A stretch of 64,000 nt of DNA from an uncultured delta proteobacterium (lineage in GTDB: Bacteria; Desulfobacterota; Binatia; Binatales; Binataceae): positions 256,001 to 320,000 of the forward strand of contig CAVQEQ010000004.1 of assembly GCA_963711565.1 (NCBI GenBank), read 5' to 3'. Below the pieces are notes generated by a model. That model ran no database searches, was not told where the DNA came from, and saw nothing but the letters and a program-made list of their open reading frames with translations. This document shows positions 20,918-61,816 of the stretch, in pieces; position 1 is the stretch's first letter; each line of letters starts with the position of its first letter. The position numbers and the translations under genes were made by a program.

Positions 20918-20985
20918 GAACTTAATTGTAGTGCAACCCGTCGTTTGTTTCACGCTGCGGAGGTTCCGCGCGATTCCGATGACTG

Positions 20986-21013
20986 TTGACTTGGCGCTCA
21001 ACGCGGGTAGTGT
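20986..21013 (+). promoter_or_regulatory. Putative sigma70 promoter for the riboswitch transcript
   Basis: TTGACT-16 nt-TAGTGT, placing +1 near 21020 at the first riboswitch helix. Confidence 0.5.
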
Positions 21014-21020
21014 TCATTCA

Positions 21021-21151
21021 GATTCGCCTGGGGAAGCCGGTGAGAGGCCGGCGCTGCCCCGCAACTGTGAGATGAGCGTCATGCGACGCTCATCGAGTCA
21101 GGCGACCTGGCGAATCGACGGAGCCGTAAGAACCTTCGCGGGAGAGGGAGG
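21021..21151 (+). ncRNA. Cobalamin riboswitch (compact)
   Basis: GGGAA-GCCGGTGAGAGGCCGGC-GCTGCCCCGCAACTGT; B12 box GAGTCAGGCGACCTG; closing helix gattcgcc/ggcgaatc; downstream ccttcgcgggagagggagg whose gcggg can pair with the cccgc loop. Confidence 0.92.
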
Positions 21152-34619: not shown

Positions 34620-35152
34620 GATTGACTCGCAACGATTTGATTGCGAAGTGGATCGCTCTTTTTTTGTGTCATCCTGAGCGCAGCGAAGGATCTCGCGCGC
34701 CGCGCGTACTGGCAGGCGCCGGACGCAGGATCGTCCGTCGAGATTCTTCGCTACAGCAGCTTCCGCTCAGAATGACAAGATCGGCGCTGGCCGTTGCGTT
34801 GCTGATGCTCGTCGGCGCGACCACCCCCGCGTTCGCTCAGAGCCCTGCCGCCACGGCGACGCCGATGGTCATGCCCATGATTCCCCAGATCCAGCTTCAA
34901 CCGGTGCCCGCCTACGGCCCGGCCCCCCTGACCGTCGGCTTCTTTGTATCGAGCGTCAATCCGGATGCCGCGCCGCTGGCCAGCTATATCTGGAACTTCG
35001 GCGACGGCCAAGTCTCGATGTTGCCGCCGACCGCGCTGTTTCACACTTACACAAATCCCGGCAGCTACGTGGTCAACGTAACTGCGACCGACACCGACGG
35101 CCATCAGGCCTCATCGTTCGCCGGCATAATCGTGACGCAGCCCCCGCAGTAG
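34616..35152 (+). CDS. Secreted PKD-domain protein
   Basis: GPAPLTV.F, YIWNFGDG, HTYTNPGSYVV.VT. Start is GTG 34616 (GTGA overlap with the SDR stop) or ATG 34772. Confidence 0.82.
   Translation: MRLTRNDLIAKWIALFLCHPERSEGSRAPRVLAGAGRRIVRRDSSLQQLPLRMTRSALAVALLMLVGATTPAFAQSPAATATPMVMPMIPQIQLQPVPAYGPAPLTVGFFVSSVNPDAAPLASYIWNFGDGQVSMLPPTALFHTYTNPGSYVVNVTATDTDGHQASSFAGIIVTQPPQ
34667..34777. repeat. 111-bp inverted doublet of repeat family D (TGTCAT.C.GAGCG...GAAG.ATCT)
   Basis: tgtcatcctgagcgcagcgaaggatctc ... gagattcttcgctacagcagcttccgctcagaatgaca; relatives at 54585 and 61787. Confidence 0.88.
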
Positions 35153-40467: not shown

Positions 40468-40525
40468 GCGGGAAGGGCAAATCACCTCATTGAGTGTGAA
40501 ACCCCCGGTGGGTTTCACATTCAAT
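40468..40525 (-). repeat. Family A half element (hairpin 2 extended to 16 bp plus tail), copy 4
   Basis: attgagtgtgaaaccc/gggtttcacattcaat; tail gtgatttgcccttcccgc matches copy 3 at 17/18 nt. Confidence 0.85.
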
Positions 40526-53970: not shown

Positions 53971-54321
53971 TTGCCTGAAGGCCGAAGACCGGAACGCGTC
54001 GCCGAAGCTGTCTTGCGAGAGCTGTCGGGCCTGCTCGTGCGCGACCTGCGCGACCCACGCCTGCGCGGCATCACGCTCACGGGCGTCAGGATGGACGACG
54101 ACCTGCGCCACGGCCGCGTGTACTTCTCGCACCTGGAAGGCTCGATTCGCGCCTCCGCCGCAATCGCCGGCTTCAAAAGCGCCAGCGGCTTCATAAGACG
54201 CGAAATCGGCAAGTCGCTGGGCCTGAGATACACCCCAGAACTCGACTTCGAATTCGACCCCGCCCTCGAACGCGCCGCCCGCATCGACGCGCTGCTCAAG
54301 CAAACGTCACCGAAAGACTAA
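53971..54321 (+). CDS. rbfA: Ribosome-binding factor A
   Basis: RPERVAE, DPRL, GFIRRE, LRYTPEL.F.FD. Confidence 0.95.
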   Translation: MPEGRRPERVAEAVLRELSGLLVRDLRDPRLRGITLTGVRMDDDLRHGRVYFSHLEGSIRASAAIAGFKSASGFIRREIGKSLGLRYTPELDFEFDPALERAARIDALLKQTSPKD

Positions 54322-54526
54322 TTGAATGTGAAACCCACCGTGGGTTTCACGCTTCCCTGGGCACGGGTGACCCCTGCACCCAGTGAAAGAAATCGCGAAA
54401 TGTTGAGGACAACCTTTCGCTATCGGGTTCGAAGGAGACGGCGGGGAATTACCTCGCCCGTTACTTCACGGGAGAGGGGCCGGCGGGCGCAGCCGCCGGC
54501 AGGTGAGGGTTCCGCGATTCAAGATG
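54321..54526 (-). repeat. Composite five-hairpin element (modules A+B+C), left copy
   Basis: Reverse-complement match to 57574-57778 over ~200 bp; includes family A copy 5 (54321-54384). Confidence 0.9.
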
Positions 54527-54584
54527 AAAGTGAGCAACGTCGCTACTTGTCCCTGTCTAGTCTTTCCGTGTCGTTCCGTCTTTG

Positions 54585-54623
54585 TGTCATTCTAGAGCGA
54601 AAGCTGCTGTAGCGAAGAATCCC
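54585..54623 (+). repeat. Family D repeat
   Basis: tgtcattctagagcgaaagctgctgtagcgaagaatccc, nearly identical to the reverse complement of 34740-34777. Confidence 0.85.
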
Positions 54624-54727
54624 GGCTTTTTCCTGGCCTAAATACCGAGCACTTCCGCTGCGCCATCACTTCTCATTCAATCTGGAAAAACGGCGCCAGG
54701 ACCGTCCCCGATCTCCCGGGCCGTGAG

Positions 54728-55174
54728 TCAGCGCTTGCGTTTATCTGGATGCGGAAGGATGTCGCCCTCAACCCGGGGCAGATCGTCAGTCGTGTCGAAC
54801 CACGACAGCTTGCTCTCGATCCATTGATGAATCTGCGGACGGAGCCGCTCCGGCTCGTCAAACGTGCCGACTCTGATCGAGAAATACCTTCCGTTTTTCG
54901 CCAGCGGATGAGTTGGCGCGAGATACTCTCCGTACAATCCGGCGCCGCACTTGCCGCAGAAGTGACTCCGTCCCGTGGCCGAAGTCGGATAGATGGCCGG
55001 GACGCCATTCGTCAGCCGGAATCCATCGCCCGCAACTGCGGCGTTCAGCAGCACGGGAGCGCCGCTGCTCCGCCGACACCGACCGCAGTGACAATAGATG
55101 ACGTCGAAGACGCTATCGACTTCGTATCGGATCGATCCGCAGAGGCAGCCGCCACTGAATGGACCAACAATCAT
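54728..55174 (-). CDS. GFA (CENP-V) family protein
   Basis: GGCLCGSIRY, CHCGRCRR, FCGKCG. Confidence 0.9.
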   Translation of the reverse strand: MIVGPFSGGCLCGSIRYEVDSVFDVIYCHCGRCRRSSGAPVLLNAAVAGDGFRLTNGVPAIYPTSATGRSHFCGKCGAGLYGEYLAPTHPLAKNGRYFSIRVGTFDEPERLRPQIHQWIESKLSWFDTTDDLPRVEGDILPHPDKRKR

Positions 55175-55235
55175 CTTGGCTGATTCTAACGCCGGACAAC
55201 CGTTTCGCGCGAGAGCGCTTTTGCAAGCAGGGCAC

Positions 55236-56555
55236 TCACTTCGACAACATCCGCTCGCGATTCTCTGATTTCTCGCCGCGCTCCAGCAGCGGCTCGACAT
55301 CGCCCGTGATCAGTCGCGCGCCTCGATCGTTGCGGAGGTACATCCACGCCCATTCGACGATCACGATGAACCGGTTGCGGAATCCGATCAGAAAGAAAAT
55401 GTGCACGAACAACCACATCAGCCATGCGATCAGCCCGCTGAGATGCAGCCCCGCGATATCGGCGACGGCGGCCGCCTTGCCAATCGTCGCCAGCGTCCCC
55501 TTGTCGCGGTAATGAAACGGAATCGTCGGCTCGCCACGAATCTGCCGGAGGACGTTCTTCGCCGCATGCCGCCCTTCCTGCATGGCAGCCGGCGACAATC
55601 CCGGCACCGGCTTCCCGTCTGACTTGATCGACGCCAGATCGCCAATCACGAACACGCCGTCCGCGCCCGGCACCGACAGATCCTGATTCACGATCACGCG
55701 CCCCGCGCGATCGAGCCCAACGTCCGTAGTGGCTCCCAGAGCCTTCCCCAGCGGCGATGCGGCCACGCCCGCCGCCCAGATCACCGTGCGCGAGTCGAGT
55801 CGCATGCCGCCGTGCGTGACGCCGCGATCGTCCACCGCCGTCACCGGAGAGTCCGTGATCACCTCGACGCCCAGCCGCTCCAGTTGCCGCCGCGCGCTAA
55901 CCGACGATTGCAGGGACATTGCAGGCAGCACCTTCGGGCCCGCTTCGATTAGTACGATGCGCGCGTTGCTGGGATCGATTTTTCTAAAATCGCGCTCGAG
56001 CACGCGCCGCGAAATCTCCGCCAGCGCCCCCGCCATCTCGACCCCCGTCGGCCCGGCGCCGATTATCACGAACGTCATCCAGTTCGCGACTTCCGCCTCG
56101 TCAACTTCGCGCTCTGCCGCTTCGTACGCGACCAGCACGCGCCGCCGTATCTCGACCGCATCCTCGAGCGTCTTCAAACCCGGCGCGGGCTCGAGCCATT
56201 CGCCATGCCCGAAGTACGAATGCGTCGCGCCGCTCGCGACGATCAGGTAGTCGTACGCCACCTCGCCGTCGAATAGCTGCACGATCCTTCGCCGCGTATC
56301 GATAGACGACGCCTCGCCGAGCATCACGCTCGCATTGCGCTGGCGCCGCAGTATGCGTCGTATCGGCGACGCGATGTCGCTCGGATTCAGCGCCGCGGTC
56401 GCCACCTGGTAGAGCAGCGGTTGAAACAGATGATGGTTGCGGCGGTCGATCATCGTCAACCTGACCGGCGCGCGTTTGAGCTCCCGCGCCGCGGCGATTC
56501 CGCCGAATCCGCCGCCAATGATCACGACGTGCTTAACTGGAGCAACAGAATCCAT
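55236..56555 (-). CDS. ndh: Type II NADH dehydrogenase-like FAD oxidoreductase
   Basis: GGGFGG, HLFQPLLYQVAT, GAGPTGVEMAG, IWAAGV. Confidence 0.9.
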   Translation of the reverse strand: MDSVAPVKHVVIIGGGFGGIAAARELKRAPVRLTMIDRRNHHLFQPLLYQVATAALNPSDIASPIRRILRRQRNASVMLGEASSIDTRRRIVQLFDGEVAYDYLIVASGATHSYFGHGEWLEPAPGLKTLEDAVEIRRRVLVAYEAAEREVDEAEVANWMTFVIIGAGPTGVEMAGALAEISRRVLERDFRKIDPSNARIVLIEAGPKVLPAMSLQSSVSARRQLERLGVEVITDSPVTAVDDRGVTHGGMRLDSRTVIWAAGVAASPLGKALGATTDVGLDRAGRVIVNQDLSVPGADGVFVIGDLASIKSDGKPVPGLSPAAMQEGRHAAKNVLRQIRGEPTIPFHYRDKGTLATIGKAAAVADIAGLHLSGLIAWLMWLFVHIFFLIGFRNRFIVIVEWAWMYLRNDRGARLITGDVEPLLERGEKSENRERMLSK

Positions 56556-56575
56556 AACAGTGATCGTATCCGAAT

Positions 56576-56625
56576 ACCGGGTGCAGGGGTCACCCCTGCC
56601 GCGGGTCCGGGGCGCGCAGCCCCGC
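56576..56625 (+). repeat. Family A hairpin 1 joined to a different second hairpin, copy 6
   Basis: accgggtgcaggggtcacccctgccg followed by cggggc-gcgca-gccccg. Confidence 0.8.
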
Positions 56626-56652
56626 ATAACAATGTTAAGCTCGTATGGATCT

Positions 56653-57540
56653 ATGAACGCAGTTCTGTTGGTGGACAAGCCCGCCGGAATCTCGTCGGCG
56701 GAGGTCGTGCGCCGCGTCAAATCACGCGTCAAGCCGGCCCGCGTCGGACATCTCGGCACCCTCGATCCCTTCGCGACCGGGCTCTTGCCGATCATGATTG
56801 GCGAGGCGACCAAACTCGCACCGTTCATCGACGCCGGCGACAAGGAATACGCGGGCCTGATCCGGCTCGGCGTCGAGACCGACACGCTCGATCGCGACGG
56901 CGCCGAAGTCCACCGCGCCGAGGTGCCCGCAATCTCGGCCGATCAGCTCGCGATGGTCGCCGCGCAGTTCACCGGCGCTATCGAGCAGATTCCTCCCGTG
57001 TATTCCGCGATCAAGCGTGCCGGCGTGCCGCTCTACCGGCTCGCACGCCGGGGTGACGACGTTGCGCCGCCCGACAAGCGGAGCGTCGAGATCAAGCGCC
57101 TCGATCTCATCTGCGAAGCGCCCGACGCGATTCGGTTCGTCGCGACATGCTCGCCCGGCACCTACGCGCGTTCCCTTGCGCGCGACATCGGCGTCGCACT
57201 CGGCACAGTCGCACATCTCGACGCACTCCGCCGCACCCGCAACGGCGCCTTCTCGATTGGCGAGGCGATGCCGCTAAGCGATATTCTCGAGTCCCTCGAC
57301 TCGGGCGCGCCGCCGCTCCGCGTGATTAATCTTCGCGACGCACTCGTCGGCCTTCCGGAGGTGGTTGTCGATACCGCCGCGGAGAAACGCCTGCGCAACG
57401 GCGACTCGCGCGCGCTCGACTCTCAGGTTCCGAACGTCGGAGCGCTATTCAAGGTGATATCCAACAGCGGCGAACTGATAGCAGTCGCGCGGGCGACCTC
57501 CCGCGTGACGGCGATAGTCGAGCGAATTTTCAACCCGTAA
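56653..57540 (+). CDS. truB: tRNA pseudouridine(55) synthase
   Basis: DKPAG, GHLGTLDPFATG, PPVYSAIK, GTYARS. Confidence 0.96.
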   Translation: MNAVLLVDKPAGISSAEVVRRVKSRVKPARVGHLGTLDPFATGLLPIMIGEATKLAPFIDAGDKEYAGLIRLGVETDTLDRDGAEVHRAEVPAISADQLAMVAAQFTGAIEQIPPVYSAIKRAGVPLYRLARRGDDVAPPDKRSVEIKRLDLICEAPDAIRFVATCSPGTYARSLARDIGVALGTVAHLDALRRTRNGAFSIGEAMPLSDILESLDSGAPPLRVINLRDALVGLPEVVVDTAAEKRLRNGDSRALDSQVPNVGALFKVISNSGELIAVARATSRVTAIVERIFNP

Positions 57541-57573
57541 GCGGATTCGTGGATCGCGACCTGGCGGGGTGTG

Positions 57574-57778
57574 CATCTTGAACCGCAGAACCCTTACCGC
57601 TGGCCGCCGTCGCGGCCAGCCGCCTCTCCCGTAAGAAATAACGGGCGAGGTAATTTCCCTCCGCCGCCTCACCCTGAACCTGAGAGCGAAATGTCGTCCT
57701 CGACATTTCGCGATTTCTTCTCACCGGGTGCAGGGGTCACCCCTGCCCAGGGAAGCATGAAACCCACGGTGGGTTTCA
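57574..57778 (+). repeat. Composite five-hairpin element (modules C+B+A), right copy
   Basis: Inverted relative to 54329-54526; includes family A copy 7 (57723-57778). Confidence 0.9.
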
Positions 57779-57881
57779 TTACGATAACGTTCCTCCTTTT
57801 TCCGTTAGCTTTACTCCCCCCTCCGGCTCTGTTAGGTTGGTCGGCTAAAGATAAAGGAAAAAGGGAAAGTAAGAACTCCGA

Positions 57882-61688: not shown

Positions 61689-61816
61689 TTACCTCGCCCA
61701 TTTACGGGAGAGGCGGCCGGCGGGCGCAGCCGCCGGTAGGTGAGGGTTCCGCGGCTCAAGTAGATAGCATGCGCACGCAGTCTTTGTGTCATTCAGAGCG
61801 AAGCGAAGAATCCCGG
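61689..61816 (+). repeat. Composite repeat, modules C+D
   Basis: ttacctcgccc..cgggagagg..gccggcgggcgcagccgccgg.aggtgagggttccgcg (as at 54449) then gtctttgtgtcattc.gagcg..gaagaatcccgg (as at 54578). Confidence 0.88.

Follow-up and report, generated by a model that had tools for sequence, protein, structure and literature searches.

An inverted pair of five-hairpin composites in Candidatus Binatus and the genus-wide mosaic of hairpin repeats to which it belongs

REP, BIME and REPIN repeats, which go together with RAYT genes in Enterobacteria and Pseudomonas, are short GC-rich imperfect palindromes with many intergenic copies, often placed behind genes and gathered into clustered mosaics; REP/RAYT systems have a gene-carrying master flanked by inverted repeats. 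Pneumococcal BOX (boxA-boxB-boxC) is intergenic and modular; its sub-units are ordered, the middle module varies, the fold is strong, and we know of no mobiliser for it. TMECO (earlier BoxC or PIT), described in E. coli and other Proteobacteria, is an intrastrand-triplex motif made of a 9-nucleotide (nt) C-rich stem, a 3-6-nt loop, a 9-nt G-rich stem, a 3-nt loop 2 that reads TTA (type A) or CCG, and a second G-rich block, with one stem mismatch tolerated (Holder et al. 2015; available text of PMC4666352). Here we describe a patchwork of repeats in a 64,000-nt window (positions 256,001 to 320,000 of contig CAVQEQ010000004.1, assembly GCA_963711565.1) from an uncultured soil bacterium of the genus Candidatus Binatus, whose genome comprises four contigs of 4.84 Mb in total and 61% GC (the window is C4:256001-320000). 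Two composites of about 200 base pairs (bp), each with five hairpins, bracket in inverted orientation a segment that holds a GFA-family gene, ndh and truB.

The repeat is in kind a REP/BIME-like mosaic joined to a BoxC/triplex-motif repeat with a hairpin in loop 2. We consider it probable that the two arms are independent copies of a mosaic of hairpin-repeat families that extends through the genus and has grown behind gene ends, one module after another, as non-autonomous selfish DNA. Most likely, the patchwork is selfish DNA that accumulates behind genes rather than a single RNA gene or a DNA switch.

The original prediction had proposed an inverted pair of about 200 bp with five hairpins and compensatory stem differences, and both parts agree with what we found. 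The reverse-complement alignment of the arms spans the whole composite (54326-54526 on the plus strand, 57574-57780 on the minus strand), with 83.0% identity across 206 nt (BLAST against the whole genome, E = 7e-52) and four collinear inverted blocks in a repeat search (58 nt at 95%, 44 nt at 89%, and 70 nt + 59 nt at 71%). Each arm folds into five hairpins (H1 to H5), with single-stranded DNA energies of -51.3 and -62.7 kcal/mol (z = -4.6 and -7.5); a fold this stable arose in 0 of 200 shuffles. Between the arms, the base of H1 is G-C in one and A-T in the other, the B stem reads GTTG/CAAC against GTCG/CGAC, and the H5 stem GCCGGCGG/CCGCCGGC against GCTGGCCG/CGGCCAGC. An Rfam search of the window gave the composites no match at the gathering score and none with E <=1.

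Copies of units A, B and CD were counted across the genome by iterated nhmmer. Unit A (leader, H1, a loop-spacer pseudoknot and H2) has 156 copies, 36 of them H2 only; unit B (H3) has 24, of which 23 are attached 3' of A, and is an optional third hairpin of A; unit CD (H4, H5 and tail) has 36. By architecture, A stands alone 125 times, A+B occurs 19 times, A+B+CD 3, A+CD 3 (all with a hairpin E in the middle), CD alone 28 and B alone 1. The composite is thus not limited to the two sites, given the third A-B-CD copy and the three A-E-CD copies in the genome; within the window, pieces of A, H1 or H2 recur separately at five other places and CD at one, as had been noted before (Table 1). The order A, B, CD, co-oriented, held in 25 of 25 adjoining clusters with one copy of each unit; five more clusters have two copies of one unit, in opposite orientations in four. 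Elsewhere in the genome, A is also followed by module F, by several hairpins of triplex type and by a form of B whose stem differs. The repeat system is genus-wide in Candidatus Binatus: matches occurred in all 24 genomes of the same genus and in none of 16 that belong to other genera in the class. Its ordered sub-units, variable middle and strong folding resemble pneumococcal BOX in architecture only, with no sequence relation implied; to our knowledge, BOX modules are neither at high copy alone nor part of nuclease cassettes, unlike the modules here.

Free reassortment of the parts became apparent when 40 composites were aligned, of which this genome contributed 3 and 12 relatives the other 37, selected among the full-length matches listed for them (13 genomes in all). 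For most of the 40, the A part, the B-linker part and the CD part have different nearest neighbours; nearly every combination of H1, B and H5 variants is found, E replaces B in 9, and the linker between B and H4 is variable in length and sequence. Variant assortment and separate copy numbers bear out the modular, recombining repeat system of the original prediction; together with differing module sets at orthologous sites, they speak against its single five-hairpin element. They also bear on the idea that the 200-nt composite is one non-autonomous transposable unit spreading whole, in the manner of a miniature inverted-repeat transposable element, with the shorter forms as truncations. Such a unit would fit the identical order and orientation in all 40 composites, as well as genome G003, which has at least 14 full copies and two near-identical pairs (c/d 98%, i/k 94%). 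However, the c/d pair has common flanks and is a segmental duplication, copies of A alone and CD alone far exceed composites, CD comes from a different family with its own gene cassettes, and no terminal inverted repeats were seen at the composite ends in either arm. With module-dependent neighbours, an exchangeable middle and a variable linker besides, spread as a whole unit is improbable.

Repeats of different families also share spacers. A and a triplex motif occur together in 31 intergenic regions, where 7 would be expected. Of the triplex motifs at most 250 nt from A, 36 are downstream of it (27 co-oriented, 9 opposite), 1 is upstream and 2 overlap it. The place of A against the stop codon accounts for the downstream position of other repeats, but not for the 3:1 orientation bias or the excess co-occupancy. 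Insertions nested in the loops of H2 and H4 suggest that a hairpin already in place attracts more of them. Some A copies (for example C4:492138 and C3:313707) have extra sequence of two kinds nested in the H2 loop region.

Unit CD is, by its sequence, a BoxC/PIT/TMECO-type motif with hairpin H5 in loop 2, for which an intrastrand triplex is predicted. Its H4 arms match the stem described for TMECO and contain a single, fixed G.A mismatch; they enclose a loop of 6-10 nt, and 97.7% of their cells pair (40 copies). The mirror block (54502-54509 and 57591-57598) follows the triplex rule at each position (G against G; A/T against A), a rule that also holds for at least five arm variants flanking DUF559 genes. 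Loop 2 of CD is the 22-24-nt hairpin H5, versus 3 nt in TMECO. Our own detector found 326 triplex motifs in the genome versus 7 in a reversed-sequence control; loop 2 is 3 nt long in 131 of them and 23-30 nt in ~95. The mosaic had been called unrecognised, but CD fits the BoxC/PIT/TMECO architecture as given in the available text of its description, save for the loop-2 hairpin. Namely, it shares the C-rich stem, loop 1, G-rich stem, mirror G-rich block and single stem mismatch, is intergenic and sometimes in inverted pairs, and has short-loop forms at DUF559 genes that carry the type-A TTA loop 2. Beyond loop 2 it differs in its host, which is of the Binatota and not the Proteobacteria, and in its gene context: the repeats here bracket DUF559 genes, whereas no transposase or integrase remnants are reported for TMECO in the available text of PMC4666352.

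In relatives, CD-type repeats form the inverted ends of DUF559 (Vsr-like nuclease) cassettes. All 8 clear DUF559 genes in this genome are flanked by inverted triplex-motif pairs, in at least five arm variants, and among 35 full-length DUF559 loci (8 from this genome, 27 from relatives) motifs lie on both sides in 27, on one side in 6 and on neither in 2. The CD model matches both flanks in 4 of 30 DUF559 loci from relatives (L249, L250, L262 and L268). At L262 the same core has TTA as loop 2 at one end and H5 at the other, a difference that shows H5 to have been inserted into loop 2. In this genome, the cassette at C1:1051235-1051549 (L236) has the CD core with a short loop 2 at one of its ends. 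The number of DUF559 genes per genome ranges from 0 to 19 among 41 genomes. Like homing-endonuclease cassettes (GIY-YIG, Vsr/DUF559-like), these have a small nuclease gene between inverted repeats and vary in presence and copy number among genomes; they differ in having no intron or intein contexts, and a homing-like action here would be by analogy.

The DUF559 gene at C1:1051235-1051549 has an in-frame TAG and may be broken. A separate arrangement was seen at L274 (G000:C1:1115900-1117400), where a 187-amino-acid open reading frame lies between inverted, nested CD/triplex repeats, preceded by A-B-F; the H4 loop of one CD copy contains a further, inserted triplex motif. The product presumably resembles DNA-3-methyladenine glycosylase I (tag).

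The original prediction had named RAYT, DUF559 and GIY-YIG as candidate mobilisers, and each proved to have its own repeat partner. Module F has 72 genome copies, many of them adjoining and in inverted pairs, and one inverted pair brackets a small GIY-YIG gene (C1:78255-78470, within the bracketed stretch C1:78173-78589). The piece called D in the original prediction, at 34667, is present and is this module (34663-34694). There are two RAYT-like (Y1_Tnp) genes: C1:341155-341601 (L136) has on its flanks an inverted REP of the GTAG type, of which the genome contains ~55 copies, many of them in doublets, and C3:1344656-1345120 (L137) has a low-copy AT-rich hairpin there. The GIY-YIG-F partnership appears at 1 of 3 genes, and the repeat partner of RAYT is not that of the composite. 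Inverted A, B or CD flanks neither RAYT gene, the nearest A being ~4 kb away. The genome therefore has a classical REP/RAYT pair, and the composite departs from it in further respects. Its modules are different families in the same orientation and not one REP alternating, with set linkers, as in a BIME, and the A consensus is without a GTAG head.

To compare orthologous sites, we examined the rbfA-stop and truB-rpsO sites in 28 relatives. The left composite begins at the rbfA stop codon and occupies most of the convergent spacer facing the GFA-family gene; the right one lies between truB and rpsO, antisense to both genes, with ndh (NDH-2) between the two composites. At the rbfA stop, 14 of 28 relatives have an A unit, as A alone, A+B, or A+CD with E between; at truB-rpsO, ~12 of 28 have A, B-A, CD-B-A or a fragment, and in G057 both sites are occupied as in this genome. 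Because orthologous sites in relatives are filled independently and variably, we regard the arms as old, independent occupants of two hot sites. Comparison of filled with empty rbfA sites defined the 5' edge, with no clear target-site duplication visible. The stop codon of rbfA is TGA in relatives without the element; the element starts at or inside the stop codon in many species, its own TAA substitutes for the TGA of empty sites in four genomes, and in G056 the reading frame continues to a TGA within the element. Gene content between rbfA and truB (window 54322-56900) also varies in the genus, with GFA in 3 of 29 genomes and other inserted genes in several.

These sites also bear on two further accounts of the pair. 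A recent local duplication without wider meaning, suggested by copies only 3 kb apart, is refuted: the arms are just 83% identical, the right one is closer (86%, BLAST) to a copy 850 kb away than to the left one, family members occupy both sites in many relatives, and each module has dozens to >100 genome copies. The original prediction had also raised inversion of the 3-kb GFA-ndh-truB segment, with the pair as recombination substrate of an invertible switch. There are 205 nt of inverted homology, including 58 nt at 95%, and the neighbourhood does rearrange: 3 of the 28 relatives (G006, L229; G045, L234; G052, L235) have truB alone in inverted orientation with respect to rbfA and rpsO. Yet the whole block was inverted in 0 of 28 relatives, and in the inverted-truB genomes the orientation of ndh, if it occurs, is unchanged and the repeats on the flanks are either direct or missing. 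With the two sites independently occupied in many species, and with housekeeping genes and no promoter logic in the segment, a switch is very improbable. In G052 the inverted truB lies between direct copies of B plus an H1-like unit.

Four DNA runs were searched for both orientations, as short-read contigs that break inside unit A, so that a crossover within A, and the outer junctions too, are beyond their resolution. In three runs (X1, X2 and X5), contigs link the B-CD part of each copy to the unique flank on the reference side. One opposite-strand joint, 54321 to 57680, appeared in one contig of one run with a 33-nt side, too short and repeat-borne to count. Joints skipping CD (54421 to 54573 and others) have sides of 22-31 nt and may derive from other copies.

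Conservation of structure was assessed across the 40 composites by scoring the pairs of H1, the loop-spacer pseudoknot and H2 to H5. Paired cells amounted to 94.4% versus 89.1% in shuffles, and the covariation score was 0.161 versus 0.083, with 0 of 500 shuffles reaching either value; slid controls were 41-46% paired. Both-sided changes occurred at 15 of 47 pairs, and H4 showed no covariation at any pair. Within this genome, the third-position pair of H1 shows all four Watson-Crick types and two further pairs show two. The H1 loop and the H1-H2 spacer pair as C:G in 54, G:C in 35 and a mismatch in 18 of 107 cases, across several stem types, where the counts are of copies and not events, and conversion tracts over both arms would look identical. 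Such interleaved loop-spacer covariation is hard to get from shared descent alone. Among the A copies listed, the A leader (GGAAG) was not seen to covary consistently with the H1-H2 spacer. In all 40 composites, the H1 pair at columns 6/23 (A-T or G-C) is fully linked to spacer column 29 (T or C), which may reflect a base triple, alternative pairing or plain subfamily linkage.

This structure, and the placement of A, raise the alternative that unit A, together with B, functions as RNA where the 3' untranslated region begins, such as a 3' exonuclease barrier or an aid to translation termination, with selfish repeats downstream. Of 94 full A copies, 93 are intergenic, and 64 of these lie in sense 0-38 nt (median 20) past a co-oriented stop codon, counts that carry error from crude in-house gene calls, in which rpsO was missed and some starts were misplaced. 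Placement at or within the rbfA stop codon in many species agrees with such a role, as do covariation at three H1 pairs, a loop-spacer pseudoknot that covaries independently of stem type, and an H1 base that alternates between U.G and U-A in the sense strand (49 G.U versus 7 A.C). A-like sequence, along with CD-like pieces, also occurs inside longer metatranscriptome contigs in three runs from three studies. These contigs, however, carry no strand, end or level information, and DNA carry-over is possible; beyond the single U.G position there is no strand asymmetry (3 G.U versus 7 A.C). Moreover, 29 of 93 copies face a gene start, copy 57722-57780 is antisense to truB and rpsO, and presence or absence of the element varies at orthologous sites of essential operons; no Rfam family matches. 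The mirror G block of CD points to DNA, as purine-motif triplexes do not form in RNA according to the available text of PMC4666352. On balance we think an RNA role for A, the chief competitor of the selfish-DNA account, somewhat unlikely. Convergent spacers are enriched among A copies (29 of 93, versus 16% of all spacers).

For selfish DNA assembled module by module, a mechanism can be outlined. That repeats and genes are partners is shown by their position and by ends that co-vary with the genes; what the enzymes do, how the repeats spread and the conversion are what we infer. CD and F copies would be gene-less ends spread in trans, now or formerly, by DUF559 and GIY-YIG nucleases. The likely route would be a nuclease break followed by repair copying from a filled site, much as in homing. 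Retention of the hairpins and mirror block would reflect recognition of a folded single strand by the enzymes, and short-tract gene conversion among copies could shuffle module variants while replacing both arms of a stem together. The fixed order A, B, CD, F would arise if A is anchored at the stop codon and later arrivals are confined downstream.

Several observations weigh against this account. No fresh insertion with a defined target or duplication was caught in the sequences compared, and neither A nor B has a linked mobiliser: other REPs accompany the RAYT genes, and no small gene was found to recur between A pairs. No DUF559 gene in this genome has hairpin-type CD ends on both sides, the closest being C1:1051235, whose gene has the in-frame TAG. 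F lies on both sides of just 1 of 3 small GIY-YIG genes, the second having it on one side and the third not at all. The excess of shared intergenic regions may stem in part from long, permissive intergenic regions. The tight anchoring of A at stop codons is unlike purely selfish DNA, and this and the interleaved loop-spacer covariation of A across stem types fit an RNA role. Nuclease action on such repeats is nowhere reported in the literature found, and the available text of PMC4666352 never mentions DUF559. Searches on DUF559 with repeats, or on Binatota repeats, gave nothing relevant among the top matches listed, although the link may be published.

A joint reading would combine both roles, and we put it forward as a tentative possibility. 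In it, the BoxC/PIT/triplex repeats, for long orphans, would be working ends of DUF559 cassettes, within an ecosystem of RAYT-REP, DUF559-triplex and GIY-YIG-F pairs whose ends, lacking genes, stack in a fixed order behind an A unit that is anchored by its pseudoknot unit at the stop codon and works as RNA. The hairpin-in-loop form of CD might then, just as tentatively, represent a new structural class of triplex repeat.

Resolution of the apparent five-hairpin element into named parts aids annotation of Binatota genomes, in which these repeats break short-read assemblies exactly at unit A and generate false small open reading frames. The wider value lies in linking triplex-motif repeats to DUF559 nuclease genes. 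If the nuclease does act on the repeats, this would account for a repeat class for which no enzyme partner has been known since the 1990s. Unit A, with its pseudoknot and its anchoring at stop codons, poses a separate question of 3'-end biology in an uncultured phylum.

Table 1 Positions of the composites, their parts and related repeats in the window
Feature	Position in window	Strand	Remarks
rbfA stop codon to 5' leader of unit A	54319..54326	+	Stop codon TAA 54319-54321
Hairpin H1, unit A	54327..54351	+	10-bp stem; loop 54338-54340, predicted pseudoknot with spacer 54358-54360
Hairpin H2, unit A	54359..54381	+	Core >90% conserved, 156 genome copies
Hairpin H3 (unit B)	54395..54420	+	
Hairpin H4, unit CD	54452..54477	+	C-rich and G-rich arms of triplex motif; fixed central G.A mismatch
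Hairpin H5, unit CD	54479..54500	+	Insert in triplex-motif loop 2; two main stem variants
Mirror G block and conserved CD tail	54502..54526	+	Block 54502-54509, putative third triplex strand
Module F (D in the original prediction)	54581..54626	+	
H1, second composite	57757..57779	-	A leader towards rpsO upstream region
H2, second composite	57726..57748	-	
H3 (unit B), second composite	57686..57711	-	
Unit CD, second composite	57574..57650	-	H4 57623-57650, H5 57599-57620, mirror block 57591-57598, tail to 57574
Lone H2 piece, ndh-truB interval	56575..56601	-	
Solo CD, then F	61690..61815	+	CD 61690-61758, F ~61785-61815; start ~20 nt past a stop codon
Unit A elsewhere in window	6580, 11104, 38569		
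H1-only piece	near 40490		BLAST
Module F	34663-34694		Inverted partner 34745-34779

Outside the genus, the 23-nt H2 core occurs exactly, in several copies per genome, in Polymorphobacter and Sandarakinorhabdus of the Alphaproteobacteria (loci L010, L020, L029, L033, L037, L040, L064, L086 and L088). A search of one Polymorphobacter genome (G041) for a Y1 transposase found none, so no mobiliser for A comes from there. These cores stand in a different context, some with a nearby inverted partner. Elsewhere in the window, a cobalamin riboswitch lies at 20975-21128 (Rfam RF00174, 54.8 bits).

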